A stretch of DNA of 64,000 nt from a virus (IMGVR_UViG_3300042691_041259:96001-160000), one strand, 5' to 3'; numbered from the stretch's first letter, positions 1-56,754 are shown. Translations and numbers: made by a program. The notes: generated by a model from the sequence alone, not told the origin.

Positions 1-293
1 TGTACCGCGTGTGTCCAGCCACAAAGGATTCCGCCTTCTTTCATCTGTTCCAGGTCTGCTGCAACAGGCTTTGGCAAAATAATGATGTCACAGTTATACA
101 GCTGTTCTCTTGGAGCTACTCTACAGCCAAAATTCAAAAAGTACTCATCGGAGTACCCATAGTCAGCGCCATAGCCTTCTTCAAACACAAGCTGCTCTCG
201 GACGCTTTTCTCAATTTTACGAATATGCTCGGGATAAATTGGAATGCGTTTTTCGTTTTCCTTATACGATGTTTTGAATACTCCTGTTGTCAT
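1..293 (-). CDS. N5-(carboxyethyl)ornithine synthase-like protein (AlaDh/PNT-family N-terminal domain), 5' part only; runs off the window start
   Basis: Not in the ORF track. My translation of the minus strand from the ATG at 293 gives MTTGVFKTSYKENEKRIPIYPEHIRKIEKSVREQLVFEEGYGADYGYSDEYFLNFGCRVAPREQLYNCDIIILPKPVAADLEQMKEGGILCGWTHAVQ with no stop. KENExR, FEEGYG, CDII..PK and GWxHxVQ match the Ceo synthase family as I recall it. The ATG overlaps the TGA of the ATP-grasp gene (ATGA, 290-293). Confidence 0.8.
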   Translation of the reverse strand, partial: MTTGVFKTSYKENEKRIPIYPEHIRKIEKSVREQLVFEEGYGADYGYSDEYFLNFGCRVAPREQLYNCDIIILPKPVAADLEQMKEGGILCGWTHAV

Positions 294-1378
294 TTCTTAT
301 CTAGGTTGAAAAAGTACCGATAACCGTCTTTTGCTTTGGGATCTGTTATGAGTTCATAATCCATTGCCCATTGCGACGATTGAATTTCCTTTTTGTATTT
401 TGGCCAGTAGTTCTGGTGTCCAGGAACTACGTATTTTTTGTAGATGTCTTCCAAGAATTCGTCGGGAAGCTGCTCACCGTAAAAGTCTTCATAAATTGCT
501 TTATAGACTTCGCACATTTTCACGCTTCCCAACCCGGTTGCGGATGAAGTTTCCATCACCCACAGCTTTCCTTTCTTATCTACTACAATATCCAGCGACC
601 AAAGGTTTAAGTCCAAGTCTTTCTTAATATCTGAACAGATTTGCAGAACGCTTTTGATAAATTCAGGAGAAACCTTATTTCTGTCTTGGTACACATATGT
701 AAAAGCAATTTTTTCATTTGCTTTCTTGGTCTTAATAGAGCGGTCCTCATCAATGGTAGGAACTCGTTCATTAATGATGATGATCTGGTCCTGGCAAAAT
801 ACTACCCGGTATTCTCTTTCAAAATCAATAAACTGGCAAAAAAGATCAAAATCTTCTTTGCTTTTCTTTAGTTCTTCGGGAGTGTCAAACTTTTGAACTC
901 CTAATCCACTGTGGCCATTTTTAATTTTGGCAATCACAGGAAAACCAACAGCTCCGTCTAGCGCTTCTTTTTTAGAAAACACTGTTTTTGGAAGCCACTT
1001 GTATTTTCCAAAAGTTTTGCCAAACAAGGTTTTATCGCCCGACGTTGGCAAAAGTTCTCTTTTATTGTATAAGAGATCGCTGTTTACCTTTTTATTTTTG
1101 ATAAACATTTCAGACTCTTTGTCCTGTCCGCCTCCGTAATAGAGAAGCGGAATTCCATCTACAATCTGAACCTTTTCATTGTCAAAATCATCTTTGGTAA
1201 AGTAATTATGAAACAGCGCATTTTTAGCGGCCATGTTGTATTTTTTTTCGCGGCCGTTTACATCTCCCGAAGTTGTGCGTATGTCATTGGACTGCATGAC
1301 CCAGCCAACTTTCTTGGCGTACTTGTCATACATATTGGCTTCAAAGATAAATTGTTCGTAGAGTTTAACGTGTTTCAT
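290..1378 (-). CDS. ATP-grasp ligase (RimK/glutathione-synthetase-like fold) with a capsid-targeting-like N-terminus
   Basis: FPVIAKIKNGHSGLGVQK, QFIDFEREYRV and SLDIVVDKKGKLWVMETSSATG are ATP-grasp motifs; N-terminus MKHVKLYEQFIFEA. Confidence 0.8.
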   Translation of the reverse strand: MKHVKLYEQFIFEANMYDKYAKKVGWVMQSNDIRTTSGDVNGREKKYNMAAKNALFHNYFTKDDFDNEKVQIVDGIPLLYYGGGQDKESEMFIKNKKVNSDLLYNKRELLPTSGDKTLFGKTFGKYKWLPKTVFSKKEALDGAVGFPVIAKIKNGHSGLGVQKFDTPEELKKSKEDFDLFCQFIDFEREYRVVFCQDQIIIINERVPTIDEDRSIKTKKANEKIAFTYVYQDRNKVSPEFIKSVLQICSDIKKDLDLNLWSLDIVVDKKGKLWVMETSSATGLGSVKMCEVYKAIYEDFYGEQLPDEFLEDIYKKYVVPGHQNYWPKYKKEIQSSQWAMDYELITDPKAKDGYRYFFNLDKK

Positions 1379-1386
1379 AAAAATTG

Positions 1387-1959
1387 TTATCCAAAGTATT
1401 CATTTTCAAAGTATAGAATCTCGAACTTGCTATCCGTGTTGATCAAGGTCAACGCGTTCAGAAGATCTGAGTATTCGCCCACTGCTTCATTCTGAATGTC
1501 AACATACCCTTGAATGAAGTTAAATGTAGCACAGTGAATGTCACAAAGAATTCTTTGACCTTTTTCACAGTACTTGTCATACAAATCGTATTCCATTTGG
1601 TAAGCGCGATTAATGATATCTACCAGGCTTACAAAATCAACTCGTGTAGGAGCTTGCGGAATGGCTGGCATTTCGTTCCACTGTACAAGGTAGTCCTGTA
1701 GACCTTTTGCGTGTTCTAGTTCGCTTGCCGCTTCAGCTTCAAAGAAAGCGGCTGCTTTTTTGTAGTTTACATTATTACACCAGTTTGCAGCATTTCTGTA
1801 GAAGTAATGCGCTGTATACTCGTCACCAATACGGTCATTGAGCATATTCACAACTTCTGCAGGAAGCTTATTAGGTGTGATTGGCTTAACCGCAGTCAGA
1901 TCAATTGCTTCATTGATCGTAATGTTGTTATCGCCTTTGAATGTTTGAAAAGTTTTCAT
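1387..1959 (-). CDS. Ferritin (non-haem, FtnA-like)
   Basis: Ferroxidase-centre pattern intact: E..Y (DEYTAHYFY), ExxH (SELEHA), E (QMEYD), QxxE (IQNEAVGE); four-helix-bundle length. Confidence 0.85.
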   Translation of the reverse strand: MKTFQTFKGDNNITINEAIDLTAVKPITPNKLPAEVVNMLNDRIGDEYTAHYFYRNAANWCNNVNYKKAAAFFEAEAASELEHAKGLQDYLVQWNEMPAIPQAPTRVDFVSLVDIINRAYQMEYDLYDKYCEKGQRILCDIHCATFNFIQGYVDIQNEAVGEYSDLLNALTLINTDSKFEILYFENEYFG

Positions 1960-2544
1960 CTATTTTATGTATTTTCTTAGCTCATCAAAGTACTTATGAA
2001 GCTCTTTAGGCATCTGTTCGTCGAAAGCTTTTTTGTCGTCGTCCTTTAATGCCTGACGAACTTTAGTTCCGCTTGGCCCACCGTCCTCTCTTGCGTCTAC
2101 CATCTTTACATTAAAGGATGGATCAACTGGAGTATCAGTTTTTGGACCAGTGATATATTCAACTTGTCTTTTGTAATCCGAGAATCGGTCACTTCCGCAA
2201 CCAACACCCATCGGCTCATAACCTTTGCTGCGTAGGAATTGCACCATCAGCGGTATTACCGTCTTTTGACCTTGTGGATAAATGAAATAGTCAGCAATGT
2301 AATTGTTAGCTTTTACCACATCGGCTCCCATCTTTTCCAGCAATGAATCCGGAAATGGAGACTCTTCTTTTTTGGAAAGAATTTGAATAGGTATCACAGG
2401 TAAGCCAAATTCCTCAGAAGTTCTTTTCAAAGCTGCCAAATGTCCATTGTGAAATGGCTGGAACCTTCCAGGAAAGAACACCACTTTTTGGCCTTCTTTC
2501 TCAAAAATAAAGCTTTCAAATGTCTTAACGTATTCTTTTCTCAT
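1960..2544 (-). CDS. HxGH nucleotidyltransferase (cytidylyltransferase-like, T4-like phage family)
   Basis: GRFQPFHNGH, GSDR and SGTKVR motifs; N-terminus MRKEYVKTFESFIFE. Confidence 0.85.
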   Translation of the reverse strand: MRKEYVKTFESFIFEKEGQKVVFFPGRFQPFHNGHLAALKRTSEEFGLPVIPIQILSKKEESPFPDSLLEKMGADVVKANNYIADYFIYPQGQKTVIPLMVQFLRSKGYEPMGVGCGSDRFSDYKRQVEYITGPKTDTPVDPSFNVKMVDAREDGGPSGTKVRQALKDDDKKAFDEQMPKELHKYFDELRKYIK

Positions 2545-3146
2545 TATGCAATATCTTTTGATTCAATCAATGTATACGTAAAAGAATTTCCATGCAGCAA
2601 AGCAGCCTTGCTGCAAATTGCCATGAATTGTTTAAAGTCTTTAATTCTTTTAAACACCTGACAGCCTTCGCTCCAGTTTTCTACGTATTGGCTTTCTGTT
2701 TTGGGATTGCTTCTGTGTATGTTAATTCCAAAAAGCCCTTCATCTACAATAACCTCATTAAAGGTCATATCTTTGTTTTTATCTCGCCAAACTTTTACAA
2801 GTCTTTGCTGGCAAAGAGCCTCATATTTTCCTTGATGCAGACGAATAGTATGCGATCCTCTGTATTGGTTAGGTATGAGTCTAGCAACACCCTTTGGATT
2901 GCTGTAATTCTTTACCGCCTTTGTTCCTGGATCAGTAGTGCATGCCCAAGAAAAAAACTTCCATTCACCGTTTTCCTTGTATGAAATAGTCAACAAATCG
3001 TCAAAAAGATTTGTGACCGACTTTCCAGTTGAAGAGTTTCTAACCCCAACAATGTTGACATCAAACCCTTTATTTTCTTCATCGTCAAACCAAACATATC
3101 CTTTGTTTTGTACGGCAGCTTTTATTTTTTCCAGTGTAAGACTCAT
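2544..3146 (-). CDS. L,D-transpeptidase (YkuD)-like protein, possible peptidoglycan-acting enzyme or endolysin
   Basis: C-terminal H-x14-SxGC catalytic-like motif GINIHRSNPKTESQYVENWSEGCQV. Confidence 0.6.
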   Translation of the reverse strand: MSLTLEKIKAAVQNKGYVWFDDEENKGFDVNIVGVRNSSTGKSVTNLFDDLLTISYKENGEWKFFSWACTTDPGTKAVKNYSNPKGVARLIPNQYRGSHTIRLHQGKYEALCQQRLVKVWRDKNKDMTFNEVIVDEGLFGINIHRSNPKTESQYVENWSEGCQVFKRIKDFKQFMAICSKAALLHGNSFTYTLIESKDIA

Positions 3147-3155
3147 AACAAACTA

Positions 3156-4478
3156 TTATTTTTTATAGGCAAGTATGCTTCGGATTTGATGAAGCGGAGC
3201 AAAAATTCCAGTATACTTATAGAGCTTACCTTTGAATACAAAAGTAATTCCTTCGGTAGGTACTATACTTTCCAGTCCGCCAGCAGCTGCTACTCGAGTA
3301 AGCTCGTGTTCCAGCTTTGCTACATCTTTTTCATCACCATTAGTGCGAATAGAAGAAATCACAGAATCAATTTCTTTTCTCATAGAAGCTGCAGCAGCTG
3401 TAGGATTAGCTGACAAAAACGCACTGATGTTTTTCATCATTTCAGTTCCAACTTCCAGGAAGAGACTTTCCAACGGACCGTATACCTTTCTTTTGAGTTC
3501 TTTTCCACGGCTCTTTTCCATGTCAACAAACCAGTTAGCTCCTTCGCCCAAGTCTTTTTTCAGCTGTGCCGCAGTGTATGACTTGTCAATGTCTGCTATT
3601 CTTCGAGCCAAACCGTCCATTGAATTTTCTGGAATTTCCACTTTTGCTTTAGCAGCTTCTTCCTTCAGAATTTTCTTAGCCATGCCTAAAGCATAATCAC
3701 CAACCGTACTGTTAGAAGTAGAACCGCTTTCTGCCATAATGGAATCAAGCTTGCTCTTGTAATAGGAAGCCCGTTCCTTTGTTTTTGGAAATGGAATAGA
3801 AGCTATATCTTGCGGACCTCGAACAAAGAAAGTTTCTTGAGCAGTTGCATTAGCATCCGCCACAAGTTTTCCAAGTTCTCTACCGGCCTGCTTATCTTCA
3901 CCAATTGCGTTACCATCTGCATCGTGTTCAACTACGCCATGAAATACAAGCATATTCTGTCCATACGGAACAGTATTTTGTGTAATAGGCGTAATGACTT
4001 CAACCGAAGCAAAATTCTTTCCATCGTTAAAGTACTTCTTTTTGTCAGCTTCTGACAGTGAATTGATGGCACCAGTAAGATCTTTCATAGCCGCATTATA
4101 TGCGGTTTCAATATCACCTCGGCCCGCAAACATACTTGCGATACCCGCAGAATCCAAAGCAGCTTCTCCACCATTTTTAAGGTGAGACTTGTTACGAGCC
4201 GCAATAAGCTTCCCGTTTTTCCAAGAGATCATGATGTTTTGACCGTCGGTCTTTTCTTGAACAAAGTTCTCAGGCCCGAACGCGCCGCTAACGGTGGCCT
4301 CAATCATTTCGCGAAGGTCTGCCATCGTCAGTCCTACGTCTTCAAACGGATGACTGATATGGCCGTACGCTCCACCTTCATTTACCGCATTCCACTCTGC
4401 CCAAGAATTAGTACGGCCTTCGTAAAGCCTTACTTGTTCAAGAAATGCATTGTAGCTGTATAGTCTGTTTGTACTCAT
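3156..4478 (-). CDS. ATP-dependent ligase/nucleotidyltransferase-superfamily protein (RNA-ligase-like, T4-like phage DUF6267-type)
   Basis: GHISHPFED; motif I EKTDGQN; motif III-like SVEVI; motif IV/V-like EGITF..YKYTG. Confidence 0.65.
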   Translation of the reverse strand: MSTNRLYSYNAFLEQVRLYEGRTNSWAEWNAVNEGGAYGHISHPFEDVGLTMADLREMIEATVSGAFGPENFVQEKTDGQNIMISWKNGKLIAARNKSHLKNGGEAALDSAGIASMFAGRGDIETAYNAAMKDLTGAINSLSEADKKKYFNDGKNFASVEVITPITQNTVPYGQNMLVFHGVVEHDADGNAIGEDKQAGRELGKLVADANATAQETFFVRGPQDIASIPFPKTKERASYYKSKLDSIMAESGSTSNSTVGDYALGMAKKILKEEAAKAKVEIPENSMDGLARRIADIDKSYTAAQLKKDLGEGANWFVDMEKSRGKELKRKVYGPLESLFLEVGTEMMKNISAFLSANPTAAAASMRKEIDSVISSIRTNGDEKDVAKLEHELTRVAAAGGLESIVPTEGITFVFKGKLYKYTGIFAPLHQIRSILAYKK

Positions 4479-4684
4479 TAGAATGTGCTGTCCATTATTA
4501 CTTTTGCGATATCATCAATTAAACCGCTTTTAGCAACATCCGCGCCTGGCTTAAGATAGTTTTCTTTCATCATATGTTCAATAATGACTGTTGCAAGAAC
4601 TTTAGCGCCTGATGGCTTATTCTTCCCTGCTACTTGTACTGCTGCTTCGGCAACAAATGTCTCAAATGATTTAGTGTAATTCAT
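4478..4684 (-). CDS. Small hypothetical protein, putative internal head protein
   Basis: 68 aa; N-terminus MNYTKSFETFVAEA; TAATG coupling to the next gene. Confidence 0.6.
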   Translation of the reverse strand: MNYTKSFETFVAEAAVQVAGKNKPSGAKVLATVIIEHMMKENYLKPGADVAKSGLIDDIAKVIMDSTF

Positions 4685-4957
4685 TTACGGTGCTGTTTTT
4701 ACATGATCTATGAATGCTTCAAAGGCCTTTGTAAGATCCTCATACGCTTCATCAAGATTCGTAATATCTTTCTGATTAGGCACACCCGACACTGGATTGG
4801 GTTCTAGCGTTGCACGCATTGCAAGCTCTGCGGCTGCGGCTTTCGCCTTCTTTTGCAGATCAAGATATTTGTTAACATACTGCTTGAGGCGTGCCTCAGA
4901 AGGACTCGCCTCGTTGATTCCGTTTTCAAATTCTGAAAAGTTCATCTTATTTGGCAT
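4685..4957 (-). CDS. Small helical hypothetical protein, putative internal head protein
   Basis: 90 aa; N-terminus MPNKMNFSEFENGINEA; abuts neighbouring genes. Confidence 0.6.
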   Translation of the reverse strand: MPNKMNFSEFENGINEASPSEARLKQYVNKYLDLQKKAKAAAAELAMRATLEPNPVSGVPNQKDITNLDEAYEDLTKAFEAFIDHVKTAP

Positions 4958-5375
4958 CTTTTTCAGTATCGATTTCGCCTTCCTTGTTTACTTCTTCTCC
5001 CTGCTCTTCTTCTTTCTTAGGCTTAGCATCTTTTACTTCTTCACCGCCTTCTTGCGCGTCTTCAGCAGCAGGGAGTTTTTCAGTTTCTTTAGCATCTTTA
5101 GCAGCAGGAATTTCAGCTTCTTTAACACCAGCTTCATCTTTTTCTTTTTCAACTTTGTCTTTTGCCGCAGGCTTAACACCTTTGCCAGCATCCCAGTCAG
5201 CTGCAATCTCATTGAAGAACTCTTTCTTCTTCTCGTCGTCCAAGTCAGCAGGAGATTCTACTCCGTACTTTGCAAGTTTTGCTTGGAAATAGTCTTGGTA
5301 AGACTTTTGCAGCTCTGATTTTTTAGCATCTTCGGCTTCGCGGATTGAACCAATCCATTCACTAAATTTTTTCAT
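4947..5375 (-). CDS. Highly charged protein, possible prohead core or internal protein
   Basis: 142 aa, E/K/A-rich; MKKFSEWIGSIREA; YQDYFQAKLAKYGVESPADLDDEKKKEFF resembles small T4-like phage proteins as I recall them. Confidence 0.6.
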   Translation of the reverse strand: MKKFSEWIGSIREAEDAKKSELQKSYQDYFQAKLAKYGVESPADLDDEKKKEFFNEIAADWDAGKGVKPAAKDKVEKEKDEAGVKEAEIPAAKDAKETEKLPAAEDAQEGGEEVKDAKPKKEEEQGEEVNKEGEIDTEKDAK

Positions 5376-5384
5376 TGTTCTATT

Positions 5385-6209
5385 TTATTTTATGTTTTCT
5401 TTTTTCTTTTGGAGCTTTTTAATCTCATCATTTATGCTCTGAATTGCAGACATAGCTTTTTTAGCCCCCGGATCGCTTGAATCACCTCCGTATTCATCCT
5501 CAATTTTTTTATTGAGAGACTTTTGTTTTTGCATCAGCGAATTTATCTTATCATCAATTTCTTGAACTTTATCGCTAACGCTACTTTCTTCATCTTTTTT
5601 CTTTACAAAGAAAATAGTATTTCCTTTAGGAGTATTTATAGGACCTGAACTATCATACTTTTTAGGGTCGGGAACTTCTGGACCGCCCTCCCCGGGCTTG
5701 TATTGATACATGCCCGCATCCTTTGCTTGCTTGACAGCTTTATCATAAATTTCCTTTGTTTTCTCGCTACTCATTATCCAGTATTCTTTTTTACCATCTG
5801 GATTAACGACTGACGCAGTTTTTGGGAACCCTTCAGAATCAGCTTCTTCGTATCGATCCTGGTCGGTTTTTACAAAGCCTTTAGATTCCAAATCTTCTTT
5901 TTTCTTTGCATAGTCCTCTTTTGCCTGTTCGGCCTTATCTTTTAGCAGATCTACCTGTTTTTGAATAATTTCCTTTTTCTTTGTGGAACCTTCCCCTTCA
6001 ACATCTTTCTTGGCACCTATTAAAGCTTTGATTTTGTCTCGTATAGCAGAAAGCAGTCCTTCATTCATGCATTCATCAATATTAACAAATTCAATAATCT
6101 CTTCTTCTGTTAAAGAATTAAATACATCAGAATTTTCTACTTCCAGCGTAAAACTTTTAATAGATTCTTTTAGAGCAAATTGCTCAAATTTCATAATACG
6201 AGTTTTCAT
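5385..6209 (-). CDS. Lys/Glu-rich coiled-coil hypothetical protein, putative internal head protein
   Basis: 274 aa; MKTRIMKFEQFALKES; further L/I/M-x-E sites (LTEE, IIE, MNEG). Confidence 0.6.
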   Translation of the reverse strand: MKTRIMKFEQFALKESIKSFTLEVENSDVFNSLTEEEIIEFVNIDECMNEGLLSAIRDKIKALIGAKKDVEGEGSTKKKEIIQKQVDLLKDKAEQAKEDYAKKKEDLESKGFVKTDQDRYEEADSEGFPKTASVVNPDGKKEYWIMSSEKTKEIYDKAVKQAKDAGMYQYKPGEGGPEVPDPKKYDSSGPINTPKGNTIFFVKKKDEESSVSDKVQEIDDKINSLMQKQKSLNKKIEDEYGGDSSDPGAKKAMSAIQSINDEIKKLQKKKENIK

Positions 6210-6223
6210 TTTTCTTATTTTTT

Positions 6224-6610
6224 TTATGACATTCCGTAGATGTTCTGGAATTTTCCGTAGTATTTATCCAACTCCTCACTAAGTATTTTGGTAACAGCTT
6301 CCTGACCCATTCCTACCGCATCGGCAAGCTTCTTGATGATATCTTCATCAATACGAAGTTTTTTGTCCATTGCATGAACAAAGGTAGTAACACACTGGTT
6401 AATGAGAGTTTCTAACTGCTTATCGCCTTCGGCTTTAGGCCAAAATATGTCAAGCAGATGAGATCTGAGTCCATCTAAAGTGGGGTCTGCGTGGTTAACT
6501 CCCGATGCTACGGGATTGTTAGTCATGGGAAGATCGTGAGACTTGGAACTCTTTGCGTTTCCTGCTCCTCTTGCATAACCCTCGTTAAGAAATTCTTTGA
6601 AAGACTTCAT
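6224..6610 (-). CDS. Hypothetical protein, putative internal head protein
   Basis: 128 aa; MKSFKEFLNEG closely matches the T4 internal-protein leaders (IPI MKTFKEF.., IPIII MKTYQEFIAE). Confidence 0.65.
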   Translation of the reverse strand: MKSFKEFLNEGYARGAGNAKSSKSHDLPMTNNPVASGVNHADPTLDGLRSHLLDIFWPKAEGDKQLETLINQCVTTFVHAMDKKLRIDEDIIKKLADAVGMGQEAVTKILSEELDKYYGKFQNIYGMS

Positions 6611-6626
6611 TTACCGGATATTTATG

Positions 6627-6635
6627 CTATATATC
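6627..6635 (-). promoter_or_regulatory. Putative late promoter GATATATAG (a second element, CATAAATA, at 6619-6626)
   Basis: Lies just upstream of the 6610 start; the same motif recurs before many structural genes; resembles the T4 late consensus TATAAATA. Confidence 0.5.
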
Positions 6636-6637
6636 CG

Positions 6638-8167
6638 TTAGAAAGAAACTTTATAGAGCTTATAGGGGAACCCTTGCTGTTTGTAGATTTTCATACGATC
6701 TTCTCCGTGCTTCATCAAATAGTTTTTATTCTTGGAACCGATAGAAAAGTCGTCCACAAAGTCAATGATATTTACCTTTTCCTTTCCTTCATACAGACGC
6801 ATTCCTCGACCGATTGATTGACGAACAATCTTTTCGCTTTTGTAAGATTCCACAAAGAAAACGTTGTGAATGTTATTGATGGAAATACCCGTTGAAAATG
6901 TTCCAAAGGAAGCAACCATAATTTTATTGGTTCCCTCTTCCATTCTTTTAATATAGTCTTCTCGCATATCTGGAGGAGTACTGCCATCTACATAAAATAC
7001 TTCTTTATCGGCGGTATGCTCTCGAATATAGTCATAGATTCTTCTTCCATATTGATCTTTTACATTCTGGAAAAGGACCAAGGAATTCTTGGTAGTTTTG
7101 CAAATAAAGTTACATACGTATAGGAATCGCGGACGGTTTTCTACCACCATCCGTTTCTCAATTTCTAGCAATTTAGCTCCATCAAGATCCCCGCTGTTCT
7201 TCTGTTCTCGTAATGACTCAAGTTTTTCTCGCACATCATGGTCCATATAGTCCATTTGTACAATCTTTACCTGTATTGGAGTGGCGTACTTATTTTCGGT
7301 AAGGAATGAGGCGCTAATGTTATTTACTTGCGGACCCAGGTATGCTTGAATGGTAAGAGCTTCAGTACTCCCGTTTTGTAGCATAGTTCCTGATAGGCCA
7401 ACCGCATAGGTAGCATCCATACAGTTTACCAAGATCTTTTTAATAGAACTTGCATTGGTATGATGCGCTTCATCCACAAGGACTGCGTCAATGCCTTCAA
7501 AGAAATAAAGCTCGCGCTTTACCAGTGATTGATATGTTCCTATAATGAGTTCTACGTCTTTCTTGGTTTTATCAGTACCTCCATGAATAAGCTGGGTAAC
7601 AAATTCCAGCTTTTTATTATTGTACAGCTCAAAGTCCTCGTTGGTCTGTAGAATCAAATTTGTATTAGGAACTACAATCATTAGACGGCTAGCTTTTCTG
7701 CGATCAATCATATATGCAAAAAGCATAAACATAATCAAGGTCTTTCCAGCAGAAGTCGCAATTTCACTAATGCTCCGTCGATATTTAAGGATTGGAATGC
7801 ACGCATCTACTTGATAGTCGCGAGGCTTAATTTTTGGATGGTCACTAAAGAATTCTGACACCCATGATCGAAAGTCTGCTTCATCAAAATCATTGTCAAT
7901 TACGCCTTCAAATCCTGCCACTTCAAGCTTAAAGCTATACTTATGGCATGTCTCCTTTAATTCATTCCAAAGCCCAACCGGGATTCGGTTGTAACGGTCA
8001 ATAAAAGATATGTAGCCATCCCATACCTTCTTTTTTACTAGCGGATGGAACCGCCAATTACTAATGCGTTTTTTAAAGGAGTGACGGATTTGATCCATCT
8101 CCAGTTCCGTGGCATCAGTTATCTGTATGAAACGTTTGTCTTGAGTTACTTCGGCTTTCACTTCCAT
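6638..8167 (-). CDS. uvsW: UvsW-like superfamily 2 DNA helicase
   Basis: PRDYQ Q-motif, ATSAGKT, DEAH, GLSGT, SFGTFSTGISI, QSIGRGMR; T4-like context. Confidence 0.92.
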   Translation of the reverse strand: MEVKAEVTQDKRFIQITDATELEMDQIRHSFKKRISNWRFHPLVKKKVWDGYISFIDRYNRIPVGLWNELKETCHKYSFKLEVAGFEGVIDNDFDEADFRSWVSEFFSDHPKIKPRDYQVDACIPILKYRRSISEIATSAGKTLIMFMLFAYMIDRRKASRLMIVVPNTNLILQTNEDFELYNNKKLEFVTQLIHGGTDKTKKDVELIIGTYQSLVKRELYFFEGIDAVLVDEAHHTNASSIKKILVNCMDATYAVGLSGTMLQNGSTEALTIQAYLGPQVNNISASFLTENKYATPIQVKIVQMDYMDHDVREKLESLREQKNSGDLDGAKLLEIEKRMVVENRPRFLYVCNFICKTTKNSLVLFQNVKDQYGRRIYDYIREHTADKEVFYVDGSTPPDMREDYIKRMEEGTNKIMVASFGTFSTGISINNIHNVFFVESYKSEKIVRQSIGRGMRLYEGKEKVNIIDFVDDFSIGSKNKNYLMKHGEDRMKIYKQQGFPYKLYKVSF

Positions 8168-8169
8168 TT

Positions 8170-8949
8170 CTAGTCATTTTTAGAGTCTTTAAGGTTCTTG
8201 AGGTATTCAATGATAGGTTTTTTATTCCAGTTTTTGTGATAGTTCTCGCAAAGAAGCCGAAAATTTTCACGTTCATTGAGCAGATCAGTTCCTTCTAACA
8301 CTATTTTCTGTACTCCTTCTGGATAGGAAATCCACACTTCGGCTCTTTTTACCTTTCGGCCGGTTCTTTCTTCGTATGCAATGGAGTACGCGCCTAACTG
8401 CTTACGATATTTTTTAACTTGGTCTTCGCCTCTTGGAGAGCTTGCGCTTTTAAAGTCTCCCAGAATATCTCCATCTTCAATTTCTTCAATATACCCAAAG
8501 TCTGCCGTACCTGCAAACATACATTCATGAGACCATAAAAACTTTTCCGAAAACAGCGGTCTTTTCATCTGCTGAAACAGTTCGGATTCCAACATATTGT
8601 AAAAGAGGTCACGGCCTTTTGCAATAGTTCTCTCCTCGTATTTTCCTGCAAGCTCTTTAGAAGTTTTCTTTTGTGTGTATAAAAGGCATGCATCGCTTTT
8701 ACCATGGTAACCCATACAAATAAGGTAATTTTCCAGGAAAGTATGCATCACAGTTCCACGGTTAGCTGCATTGGAAGAAATACGTGCAAGTTCTTCAGCT
8801 CCAATATCCTCTGAAAGCTTTTCCAGCCAGGGCTGTGGCTCAGAAGAAAGCACAGTTGTTACTGATGGGTAGATGCGAATGTCTTCGCCATCCCGTACCA
8901 TGTAAACTCTCCCATGAGGAGTATCGACTCTTTTTATGTTTGCGTTCAT
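8170..8949 (-). CDS. PD-(D/E)xK exonuclease (T4-like phage family)
   Basis: YPSVTTVLS, RGTVMH, E..L, AGTAD, GDFKS, QLGAY; ATGA overlap with uvsY. Confidence 0.85.
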   Translation of the reverse strand: MNANIKRVDTPHGRVYMVRDGEDIRIYPSVTTVLSSEPQPWLEKLSEDIGAEELARISSNAANRGTVMHTFLENYLICMGYHGKSDACLLYTQKKTSKELAGKYEERTIAKGRDLFYNMLESELFQQMKRPLFSEKFLWSHECMFAGTADFGYIEEIEDGDILGDFKSASSPRGEDQVKKYRKQLGAYSIAYEERTGRKVKRAEVWISYPEGVQKIVLEGTDLLNERENFRLLCENYHKNWNKKPIIEYLKNLKDSKND

Positions 8950-9407
8950 CCTCTTCGGTATTCTTCTAAAGCTATTCGATGTTTTACTCCATAACAGATA
9001 GTGTCTATGCTTCTGAGTGTTTCCCTCATATAATCCAAATGATTTTGTAGCAGCTCTCGTCTTTCTACAATATCTGCAAGGTCAACATCAATAAACAACA
9101 TCTTTGGATCCTTATCTAGCCTTAGATCGTAATTTTGAGTATAGTGCAAGTATCTTTCCCGCTTTCTCTCTCGGTAGATTCGATTCAGTTTTGAAGAATG
9201 AGCAACAAGCTCGTGTACATAGTCTCCAGCAATCTGTCTTTGACTATATAGGTCTGTAAGAAGCTCTGCTACATCATAAATGTTTTTCAGTCTCTCAGTA
9301 AGAGAACTTACTTTGGTAGTCCACTCTTCTCGTTCTGTCGCAAACCTTTGGTAAAGGCTGTCGTTCTTAGAAGAGGCTTCCTGCACCGTTGTCTTTTCTT
9401 CTGACAT
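8946..9407 (-). CDS. uvsY: UvsY-like recombination mediator
   Basis: 153-aa helical protein with YTQNYDLRL..K..FID.D and L..IDTICYGVKHRI; sits next to uvsW. Confidence 0.65.
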   Translation of the reverse strand: MSEEKTTVQEASSKNDSLYQRFATEREEWTTKVSSLTERLKNIYDVAELLTDLYSQRQIAGDYVHELVAHSSKLNRIYRERKRERYLHYTQNYDLRLDKDPKMLFIDVDLADIVERRELLQNHLDYMRETLRSIDTICYGVKHRIALEEYRRG

Positions 9408-9538
9408 ACACGTTATTTTTAGTAGACTTCAATCGTGGTTGTTCCGCCACAAAATCGGTCAGAGTATTTATTTCAGGCAAATTTGTTTGAAAAAATGCCA
9501 GGCCTTTCAGCTTTATCGGAGCTTCCAACCAAATCTGC

Positions 9539-12076: not shown

Positions 12077-12714
12077 TTGGTGTTTAAAGTTTTCTCTAAA
12101 GTTTTTGCTATCCAATACGAATCTACAATATCGTCAACGGGCTTAAGCCAGGCACCTTTCTTTGTCTGAAATTCTGCTGGTGCTGTTCGCAAAGCCTGTG
12201 CAAAAGTAGAATCACAATCTGAATTTATGAACGCCTCGATCATCTGTTCTTTCTTAAAGTTTCCCTTTCCGGCAGTTGCCTTAATGGTCATAGGAGAAAA
12301 GAACCAGAGCTGGTCTGGACTGATTTTGCAGTCCTCAATTAAAAAAGATCGAAGCAACCATTGATACCCACTAATCTGGGCTAAACGGTTTCCGCTTGAC
12401 CCAAAGGAAAATCCTTCAATTGCTATTTGATCTTCCTCGTTAAAAGACCAGGCAGAAAGCATTTTTGAAATGCTACGAGTCTGCATTAAGCCATCCTTAA
12501 TGGAAGATCTTTCACGGTCAGTAAGTTTTGCGGATTTTGGTAGTGATTGCTCATCGGGTAATGCTATTACATTTACACCGTGTTGTTGAAGCGTAAGAAA
12601 AAAGTCTTCCTTGGCTACACTTTGTCTTGCAAATGTATAGAATTTCCATTCACCTGCATCTGTAAGCAGTGTAATGGCAGGAGACTTAATTGAAAAGTCT
12701 ATGCCTGCTATCAT
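12073..12714 (-). CDS. RuvC-like (RNase H fold) Holliday junction resolvase
   Basis: AGIDFS, AIEGFS, P..IKATAGKGN, DDIVDSYWI. Confidence 0.75.
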   Translation of the reverse strand: MIAGIDFSIKSPAITLLTDAGEWKFYTFARQSVAKEDFFLTLQQHGVNVIALPDEQSLPKSAKLTDRERSSIKDGLMQTRSISKMLSAWSFNEEDQIAIEGFSFGSSGNRLAQISGYQWLLRSFLIEDCKISPDQLWFFSPMTIKATAGKGNFKKEQMIEAFINSDCDSTFAQALRTAPAEFQTKKGAWLKPVDDIVDSYWIAKTLEKTLNTK

Positions 12715-13037
12715 TTTCCGATGTTTTTACCTATTGCGGATCCCAAAGCTGTAGAAACCAATCGTGAAGTAAGCATATCATAGAGGATTCCTCTTTCAAC
12801 GCCTAATGCATTTGCAATAATTTTTCCGATTGTTGGACCTACCAAGAAACCTGCTGCGCCTCCGATGATTGATCCCAGGATCCCTTCATCAATGCTTGCA
12901 ACACCGTGTATTTCTACAGCCTCTTGAATTTCTTTGTAGATTCGTTCTGCTTCAGCCTTTTCAGATTCGTTTAGGTAGCTCAGATCCATGCTTTCTTCCA
13001 GCAATTGAACCTTACGTGATTCGTCAAATGTTTTCAT
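12711..13037 (-). CDS. Small protein with a capsid-targeting-like leader and a glycine-zipper hydrophobic segment
   Basis: MKTFDESRKVQLLEES; GILGSIIGGAAGFLVGPTIGKIIANALG. Confidence 0.65.
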   Translation of the reverse strand: MKTFDESRKVQLLEESMDLSYLNESEKAEAERIYKEIQEAVEIHGVASIDEGILGSIIGGAAGFLVGPTIGKIIANALGVERGILYDMLTSRLVSTALGSAIGKNIGK

Positions 13038-13038
13038 T

Positions 13039-13239
13039 CTATAGCAATTTTTTAAGCTCTTCTAGGAACGGCCCGTAATTACGATCGCCGTAATCATCTT
13101 CCATAATTTTGGCAACAGCCGCAGCAAAGTCTTTATATGACATGCTGTCGTCTATTTTTTCCATTCCGGCTTTTATGTGTTTAACCAAGCTGGAAACGGT
13201 TGAAGATGATTCATTGATAGCCTCGTTGAAAGATTTCAT
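13039..13239 (-). CDS. Small hypothetical protein, putative internal head protein
   Basis: MKSFNEAINES; late-promoter-like motif just upstream. Confidence 0.6.
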   Translation of the reverse strand: MKSFNEAINESSSTVSSLVKHIKAGMEKIDDSMSYKDFAAAVAKIMEDDYGDRNYGPFLEELKKLL

Positions 13240-13254
13240 GCCATTTAATTTTTT

Positions 13255-13263
13255 CTATATATC
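13255..13263 (-). promoter_or_regulatory. Putative late promoter GATATATAG
   Basis: 16 nt upstream of the 13239 start; identical to the copies at 6627, 38482 and 56746. Confidence 0.5.
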
Positions 13264-23418: not shown

Positions 23419-23427
23419 CTATATATT
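23419..23427 (-). promoter_or_regulatory. Putative late promoter variant AATATATAG
   Basis: About 25 nt upstream of the tail fibre start; one mismatch to GATATATAG. Confidence 0.4.
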
Positions 23428-38481: not shown

Positions 38482-38490
38482 CTATATATC
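38482..38490 (-). promoter_or_regulatory. Putative late promoter GATATATAG
   Basis: 30 nt upstream of the 38452 start; overlaps the stop codon of the glycosylase gene. Confidence 0.5.
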
Positions 38491-53722: not shown

Positions 53723-54070
53723 TTATTCAAAATCGGGCAAAAAGCCAAGACTATTCATACAGTCTTGATTAAAGTATGCCTGTTGTGATCTTGGATATTT
53801 GTTACTAAAAATAATTTTATCATCTTTAGCGACATCCAAAAAGTATACCCCTCCACCAATACCGGCTGTGATTGCCCATTCGGCGCCAGATCCACGTTCT
53901 TTTGCTACGTAAACATCCACTTGATCAAAGCGATTGTCATCGTCAAGCGTTTCTTCGCTTCTTTCCGCATCTCTGTCAAAGCTTATTCCACCAAGTCTTA
54001 ATTGTTTTTCAATATCAAAAGGTAAATGCGCTTCGCCAACAAACGCCTCAAACGTTTTTAAGTGCTTCAT
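53723..54070 (-). CDS. Small protein with a capsid-targeting-like leader
   Basis: MKHLKTFEAFVGEA; ATGA coupling to the amidoligase stop. Confidence 0.6.
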   Translation of the reverse strand: MKHLKTFEAFVGEAHLPFDIEKQLRLGGISFDRDAERSEETLDDDNRFDQVDVYVAKERGSGAEWAITAGIGGGVYFLDVAKDDKIIFSNKYPRSQQAYFNQDCMNSLGFLPDFE

Positions 54071-56745: not shown

Positions 56746-56754
56746 CTATATATC
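56746..56754 (-). promoter_or_regulatory. Putative late promoter GATATATAG (an exact T4 TATAAATA also overlaps the start, 56726-56733)
   Basis: 20 nt upstream of the bS1-like start. Confidence 0.5.

Follow-up and report, generated by a model that had tools for sequence, protein, structure and literature searches.

A candidate T4-type capsid-targeting leader on about thirty unrelated proteins of an uncultivated large phage

Background

The internal proteins (IPs) of phage T4 are small, basic and DNA-associated in their mature form, and the capsid-targeting sequence (CTS) that they carry was reportedly the subject of work by Mullaney and Black in 1996. Read from the T4 genome record (NC_000866), ipII and ipIII start MKTYQEFIAE/A and ipI starts MKTFKEFTSTTTPVSTITE/A, i.e. 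MKTFKEF..ITE/A (a slash marks the known or predicted cleavage position throughout), and the maturation site of the capsid protein gp23 is FGSFLTE/AEIGG. The CTS of IPI, IPII and IPIII has been reviewed (PMC9026906, PMC3012670): targeting depends on residues 4 and 7 and processing on residues 8 and 10, and foreign proteins fused to the sequence are retained and delivered into the host (PMC9026906). Here we describe leaders of the same form in a 64,000-nucleotide stretch of viral DNA (IMGVR_UViG_3300042691_041259:96001-160000, hereafter the window), which comprises bases 96,001-160,000 of a 202,505-bp IMG/VR virus contig, and in particular in a gene cluster at window positions 290-6610. Positions are those of the window unless given as genome positions, which are counted along the contig.

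Large phages such as phiKZ, 201phi2-1 and SPN3US likewise load many proteins into the head, with cleavage after Glu and a gp21-related protease, and a role of their propeptides in head targeting has been proposed (PMC5694885, PMC10052503). Those propeptides are mostly longer (up to more than 100 residues), sit on paralogous families and have no single short motif, whereas the phage studied here places a single 13-residue consensus on unrelated proteins. The T4 CTS is the known element; its likeness is described here on about 30 carriers, enzymes among them, together with a match to a scaffold repeat in relatives. A search of a limited literature collection found no description of CTS-like leaders in huge, megaphage or Bacteroidota-type phages, a result that leaves novelty unproven.

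Results

A first-pass annotation of the window, made from the sequence alone, had listed nine open reading frames (ORFs) with a shared aromatic N-terminal pattern followed by a hydrophobic-x-Glu site. All nine are present with the N-termini that it quoted, on the minus strand, and the leader is missing, as it had claimed, from the gene at 2544-3146 and from the helicase gene at 6638-8167. The nine leaders are real but underestimate the extent of the set: a motif scan of the whole contig, which the annotation had proposed beforehand, finds the leader in about 30 of the 213 ORFs of a crude ORF call of all 202,505 bp, and related contigs hold hundreds. Its consensus is M-K-H-[VI]-K-x-[FY]-E-x-F-[LIV]-x-E or a near variant, and most carriers are grouped at genome 76.6-102.6 kb, with the cluster at 290-6610 forming the right-hand end of the group. 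Recognised replication genes and recognised tail and neck genes are without it.

A strict form of the pattern, [FYW]xx[FWY][LIVMFAE]x[ED] starting no later than residue 20, matches 21 ORFs; shuffled proteins yield 2.4 ± 1.5 matches and never more than 8 in 500 shuffles. It is 7.2-fold denser at N-termini than in protein interiors. The motif falls within the first 20 residues in all 30 carriers, almost all of which have the [FY]-x-x-[FWY] aromatic pair equivalent to Tyr4 and Phe7 of T4. The element [LIVMF]-x-E directly follows the second aromatic in 19-21 carriers and appears as a delayed [LIV]-x-E in the rest; the residue after Glu (P1') is mostly A, G or S, and in one carrier Asp replaces Glu. 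In three proteins the leader begins a few codons inside the longest ORF (MRKEY-VKTFESFIFE, MPNK-MNFSEF and MKTRI-MKFEQF).

The proteins behind the leader have little in common. BLASTP among the 30 mature parts, which range from 60 to 601 aa with many of only 60-130 aa, finds no pair at E<1e-3; the conserved leader residues use differing codons (TTT/TTC, GAA/GAG, AAA/AAG, GTA/GTT/GTC), and a comparison of the DNA upstream of leader genes shows no common sequence. Since the bodies are unrelated and the codons differ, the conservation is at the protein level and not the result of recent duplication, and the leader is one protein-level tag on mutually unrelated proteins.

The likeness to the T4 CTS that the annotation had pointed out holds against the T4 genes themselves, with identical spacing of the aromatic-x-x-aromatic-hydrophobic-x-Glu elements. 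In both phages the form is that of an N-terminal propeptide (10-19 residues) with aromatics three apart, a hydrophobic-x-Glu site and a small residue after it, all four key positions being equally spaced, and in both it is attached to unrelated, fast-evolving proteins. The T4 sequence KTYQEFIAE/A compares with KTYESFLAE/E and KTFESFLNE/x in the studied phage, and the leader of its predicted ferritin, MKTFQTF..ITINE/A, with MKTFKEF..ITE/A of IPI; both phages also have a gp23-family capsid protein, and a gp21-family protease is encoded by T4 and by relatives of the studied phage. Unlike the T4 sequence, the new leader has three extra starting residues (MKH[VI]) and about 30 carriers, as against three T4 IPs and CTS-like variants in other T-even phages (PMC9026906), and its carriers include recognisable enzymes, reach 601 aa and have mature parts that are not basic. 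The leader proteins therefore share the tag of the T4 IPs and not the IP protein type; with a median pI of 5.75 for these parts, the idea that the cargo consists of IP-like DNA-binding proteins was dropped.

What connects the leader to head assembly is a set of independent computed lines, namely the capsid gene, the scaffold repeats, the N-termini of major capsid proteins (MCPs), the head modules and a shared promoter-like motif. The contig, whose minus strand holds nearly all of its genes, is rated 66% complete by CheckV, so that the genome should be about 300 kb. Its end cuts a Gp23-family capsid gene, the C-terminal part of which matches PF07068 (43.9 bits, genome 202264-202488), and the truncated MCP is 70-75% identical to the MCPs of related loci; by this match the studied phage encodes a T4-type head with a gp23-family MCP. 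The nearest records by the UvsW-type helicase are LR756500.1, an uncultured huge phage of 462 kb (43.6% identity), followed by the Lak megaphages of Prevotella at 37% and Tenacibaculum phage PTm1 at 32%; among cultured phages, PTm1 is the nearest by this gene. A blastn search of the cluster region against phage records gave zero matches, and a search for relatives with the 776-aa protein next to the MCP gave a single distant locus only. As a separate observation, a portal gene lies at genome 57584-59188, about 143 kb from the capsid gene at 202183-202505, whereas in relatives portal, protease-scaffold and MCP genes adjoin; the explanation is either a split head module or a circularly permuted genome in which the two contig ends meet.

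In LR756500.1, whose GC content is 24% against 39% in the studied phage, the gene order is portal, S77 protease fused to scaffold, MCP. The fused protein has 632 aa, with an N-terminal S77 domain (PF03420, 44.8 bits) and a long helical C-terminal part; the Gp23-family MCP has 550 aa and starts MIKLINE/AE; and about 33 ORFs carry a leader with the consensus MKYIKEYEEFLNE. We then scanned IMG/VR with a back-translated pattern for MKH.K.FE.F.xE, which holds about 22 bases of information, so that essentially no chance matches are expected. Among the matches listed there are at least 120 stretches with 335 leader ORFs (consensus MKHIKLFEQF[VIL]NE[AS]), of which 103 of the 120 share other genes with the studied phage and 13 hold the protease-scaffold gene. 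A leader gene stands between portal and protease in all nine of the loci that hold both, these loci having been picked by the leader, and further leader genes stand immediately before the protease or the MCP in related stretches; because the stretches were fetched via the leader, this shows membership of head modules and not its frequency. The MCPs of relatives begin MANLINE/AEV, MHNQLINE/AEV, MANLINE/SEV or MIKLINE/AE, which is the cleavage half of the leader without its aromatic half.

In relatives the scaffold itself carries the same motif. Counting [FYWH]xx[FWYH][LIVMA]x(x)[ED], the protease-scaffolds of seven leader-bearing relatives contain 7-13 copies, against about 0.5 in shuffled sequences (maximum 4), and the copies are mostly [YF]xx[YH][LIV]AE with a period of exactly 14 residues. 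PTm1, taken as negative control, has a protease-scaffold and no leader proteins, and its scaffold has one motif site only, outside any repeat. In the genomes examined, leaders are thus found together with scaffold repeats, which suggests that the leader docks as a mimic of a scaffold unit and that both are cleaved at sites of one kind. In T4, by contrast, the scaffold gp22 is a separate gene product without regular 14-residue repeats, with two scattered look-alikes of the motif. The gene between portal and protease in relatives has the position of T4 gp67/gp68, and gp67 and gp22 have an N-terminal hydrophobic-x-Glu site (MEGLIE/A and ..QLIAE/A); no sequence similarity to gp67, gp68 or gp22 was detected, and the aromatic pair is missing from these T4 proteins.

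Nested protease/scaffold genes occur in other phages. In one relative (L126), the protease-scaffold gene at 2264-4309 contains a GATATATAG-like motif at about 3170 with an ATG 17 nt later, whose product would start MNGIIKYNEYLAE; possibly this ATG begins a nested scaffold-only protein with a leader-like start.

The motif GATATATAG is the last of the lines noted above. The contig has 18 copies of this 9-mer on the coding strand and two on the opposite one, and 16 of 22 ATATATAG sites lie 5-36 nt before a start codon. In the window its minus-strand sites are 6627-6635, 13255-13263, 23419-23427, 38482-38490 and 56746-56754, the first of them 16 nt ahead of the gene that opens the cluster (6224-6610). 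The genes that follow it include the tail sheath (PHROG E 8e-99), a head-closure-like neck gene, giant tail-block genes, the gene next to the MCP and four leader genes, the head of the cluster among them. Relatives have it before the protease-scaffold gene, and of the 58 genes that it leads there, 23 carry leaders. From this gene context we regard GATATATAG as a putative late promoter. Another motif, AAAACTTT-N(13-15)-GAATATAA, has 25 coding-strand sites and a single one on the opposite strand. It stands before replication and nucleotide-metabolism genes and, at genome 94.3 kb, before a leader gene, so that purely late expression is not to be expected of every leader gene. A third class, a long TGTTAATAAC...hairpin...TTTTTGTATTATTTTTATCCTA element, occurs nine times before small genes near the contig ends, and the three intergenic classes look like late, middle and early promoters. 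A scan of positions 1-9500 for sigma-70 promoters and terminators gave counts no higher than chance, which neither supports nor excludes a single transcription unit.

In four metatranscriptome runs the cluster is covered by contigs from related strains (90-99% identity); in two of these runs coverage is confined to window positions 1 to about 6,690 and the next 13 kb are empty. The pattern fits a separate, well-expressed unit that starts near GATATATAG, and may also come from strain divergence or DNA carry-over. The RNA-library contigs of related strains (about 95% identical) skip 1388-1958, so that the ferritin gene is precisely absent, and the contig of one related strain skips 5375-6221, with the 274-aa gene precisely absent. 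Presence and absence between strains that is exact to the gene marks the tagged genes as exchangeable cassettes.

Four enzyme identities had been put forward in the first-pass annotation, and they fared unequally: the ferritin and the NMNAT-like nucleotidyltransferase are supported, the ligase-like protein moderately so and the ATP-grasp protein weakly. The predicted bacterial-type non-heme ferritin (190 aa, 1387-1959, minus strand) has an N-terminal extension of about 30 residues, MKTFQTFKGDNNITINE/A, and matches PF00210 with 59.5 bits over residues 38-172; 55 PDB ferritin sequences align at E<=0.01 (best 7.8e-15), starting at residue ~32. By these searches it appears as a full-length match to the ferritin four-helix-bundle domain. 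The NMNAT/cytidylyltransferase-like enzyme (194 aa, 1960-2544, minus strand; leader MRKEYVKTFESFIFE/K) matches PF01467 with 29.4 bits (cut-off 21) over residues 23-67 (FPGRFQPFHNGH), the nucleotide-binding (H/T)xGH region, and NMNAT MJ0541 (PDB 1F9A) with E 2.8e-4 from residue 23, the match by sequence covering only the N-terminal third of the protein. Its orthologues begin MKHIKLFEQFINE/A, and in other relatives the domain is the C-terminal part of a leaderless protein of about 600 aa. Cellular homologues of the ferritin and the NMNAT are without the leader extension.

The 440-aa protein (3156-4478, minus strand) has the degenerate leader MSTNRLYSYNAFLE, in which YNAFLE is without the spacer residue before Glu. 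Its sequence gives no match in Pfam, PHROG or PDB. An alignment of 15 orthologues shows K76-x-D78-G79 (motif I) to be invariant, and the same orthologues, at ~31-34% identity, keep the leader pattern, though not its residues, followed by a variable-length linker and a body conserved from residue ~34. An AlphaFold2 (AF2) model (pLDDT 81) has a low-confidence helix at residues 9-20, a disordered segment at 21-39 and a confident body; its top 50 structural matches are all ligases, with Z no higher than 8.4 (Trl1, T4 Rnl1), near the grey zone, and a Foldseek E of only 1.6e-3. We assign it, with moderate confidence, as an RNA-ligase-like nucleotidyltransferase. The 362-aa protein (290-1378, minus strand; leader MKHVKLYEQFIFE/A) scores 21.6 bits for Pfam R2K_2, below the cut-off of 26.2, and matches PHROG 2599 ('S6 glutaminyl transferase') at E 1e-9; a search of its sequence against PDB gave no match, and we assign it weakly, from these two profiles, as ATP-grasp-like (RimK/R2K-like). 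Its orthologues at 28-73% identity retain the leader. Because ferritin and NMNAT align only from residues ~32 and 23, and because the AF2 helix stands detached from the body, leader and variable linker are best described as an add-on.

Several domain arrangements were noted alongside these assignments. In Microcystis phage Mel-JY01 (PP395634.1, L180, 11243-13162) an NMNAT-like and an RNA-ligase-like domain, encoded by neighbouring genes in the studied phage, are fused in a 640-aa protein that has no leader; many IMG/VR relatives carry the NMNAT-like domain at the C-terminal end of another module, of ~420 aa, which is homologous to a leaderless 559-aa protein at genome 90454-92133. There are hints here that NMNAT-like and RNA-ligase-like modules work together. 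Overlapping the stop of the ATP-grasp-like gene by 4 nt is a leaderless 349-aa gene (window 3-293, genome 95244-96293), whose N-terminus resembles, by eye, alanine dehydrogenase or N5-(carboxyethyl)ornithine synthase, and it may be coupled with the ATP-grasp-like gene as a pair.

The remaining genes of the cluster, all on the minus strand, are mostly small. The first encodes a 128-aa protein with function unassigned (6224-6610; leader MKSFKEFLNE/G, near MKTFKEF of T4 IPI), whose orthologues keep the pattern as MRIMNFSEFLAE/G. It is followed by a 274-aa Lys/Glu-rich protein (5385-6209; (MKTRI)MKFEQFALKE/S), a 142-aa acidic protein that matches phrog_28651, of unknown function (4947-5375; MKKFSEWIGSIRE/A), a 90-aa protein (4685-4957; (MPNK)MNFSEFENGINE/A) and a 68-aa protein (4478-4684; MNYTKSFETFVAE/A). 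The leaderless gene at 2544-3146, which served as internal negative control within the cluster, encodes a 200-aa protein that matches phrog_3000 and resembles the C-terminal part of an endolysin family. Elsewhere in the window, a 66-aa protein (13039-13239, minus strand; MKSFNEAINE/S) has GATATATAG directly before it at 13255-13263, a 115-aa protein (53723-54070, minus strand; MKHLKTFEAFVGE/A) lies among baseplate and tail genes, and 12711-13037 is a possible further carrier.

Three proteins of the contig contain the motif internally. A 601-aa protein at genome 170136-171941 (L014:10136-11941) has a second leader, SFQTFEEFVNE, at residue 316, and its C-terminal end resembles a PAP2 phosphatase domain (26.7 bits, slightly below the Pfam cut-off); the protein at genome 173752-174303 (L014:13752-14303) has MDFESFLSE at residue 121; and the protein at genome 89220-89906 (L013:13220-13906), whose own N-terminus is leaderless, has MKHVKLYEAYIEE at residue 156. 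Such internal copies could be fused cargo genes or internal processing sites.

Discussion

The leader is probably a cleavable tag of the T4 CTS type, which targets proteins to the prohead and is removed by a gp21-family protease, with a scaffold built from the same motif. As we picture it, a 10-17-residue N-terminal propeptide would dock its protein, through the aromatic-x-x-aromatic half, into the scaffolding core of the assembling prohead, and its hydrophobic-x-Glu half would be cut by the gp21-family (S77) prohead protease. The scaffold of this clade being fused to the protease and made largely of tandem 14-residue repeats, the leader probably imitates one repeat and would be clipped when the scaffold itself is diced. 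The mature protein would then stay enclosed in the head and could, as happens in T4, be ejected together with the DNA. Docking, cleavage, retention in the virion and ejection are steps that we infer, and by analogy with T4 active enzymes would be delivered into the host. If so, the studied phage probably carries a large protein cargo in its head.

A number of observations weigh against this account. The PF03420/S77 (gp21) protease has no match anywhere on the 202,505-bp contig (66% complete), and we assume that its gene lies in the missing part of the genome, upstream of the truncated MCP gene, as it does in relatives. Nor are the mature parts basic: their median pI is 5.75, against 5.63 in the other ORFs. 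Leader genes at genome 86.5-94.3 kb stand behind the promoter type of replication genes, and the late status of GATATATAG is drawn from gene context only. Thirty cargo species, some of them of 360-600 aa and one a ferritin that is a probable 24-mer, would far exceed the T4 record. The leader proteins of this phage, unlike those of T4, are known from genes alone, and no cultured phage with the leader turned up. Filed with these points, and evidence neither way, is a docking model of scaffold repeats (residues 200-420 of the L138 protease-scaffold) with the first 60 residues of the adjacent leader protein, which scored 0.00, its controls not having been run.

The tag might recruit proteins to the prohead core and be cleaved there while the tagged proteins act only in assembly, as accessories of core or scaffold, as determinants of size or as factors that condense DNA, or are degraded and expelled like scaffold. 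The gp67/gp68-like position of a leader gene in relatives suits this explanation, as do the many carriers that are small with no function assigned and the fact that the motif is a scaffold repeat. We nevertheless consider it unlikely, since carriers include what appear to be folded enzymes with catalytic motifs (K-x-D-G ligase-like, full-length ferritin, HxGH-type transferase) and no obvious assembly role, since foreign proteins fused to the T4 CTS are retained and delivered into the host (PMC9026906), and since gain and loss that is exact to the gene, as seen between strains, suits accessory cargo better than parts of the core.

We see a similarly small chance that the shared N-terminus is a tag for something other than the capsid: a phage chaperone or a modifying enzyme might recognise it, or it might serve as a degradation or timing signal or as an oligomerisation helix. 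The resemblance to the T4 CTS would then have arisen by convergence. Packaging is, after all, read from sequence, and some leader genes lie among replication genes behind their promoter type; yet the match to T4 spans targeting and processing residues at the same spacing, the head scaffolds of relatives repeat the motif and that of leaderless PTm1 does not, the cleavage half recurs at the N-termini of MCPs, head modules contain leader genes, and no single candidate partner gene was noticed, though none was searched for. That the pattern is an artefact of chance, of recent duplication of a 5' segment or of a nucleotide-level signal such as one for translation initiation is very improbable. Lys-rich, A-rich starts are common in low-GC phages, but the excess of the strict motif over shuffled proteins, the varying codons of conserved residues, the lack of a common sequence in the upstream DNA, the unrelated protein bodies and the persistence of the pattern across genomes of 24% and 39% GC and in orthologues of ~31-34% identity all argue against it. 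A cleavable tag for targeting to the prohead thus remains our preferred reading of the leader.

Conclusions

If the tag works as in T4, the set of proteins packaged in the head and injected could be predicted from genomes alone for a group of large, environmentally widespread uncultivated phages (at least 120 IMG/VR loci), and capsid delivery would be used for dozens of proteins, including enzymes, rather than for a few. The agreement of the tag with the scaffold repeat points to a simple rule of cargo recruitment that can be tested, and short portable tags of this kind may be of use for loading foreign proteins into phage heads. We tentatively extend this to a broader proposal, which as it stands is rather doubtful: that the tag is a copy of the 14-residue repeat unit of the scaffold, that acquiring a 13-residue cassette suffices for co-assembly with the core and release, and that the clade injects dozens of strain-exchangeable proteins before any transcription, the set being readable from sequence. 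On the injection reading the cargo would include RNA-ligase-like, NMNAT-like, ATP-grasp-like and ferritin proteins, and cargo enzymes might plausibly repair RNA or restore NAD, both of which are targets of bacterial defences.

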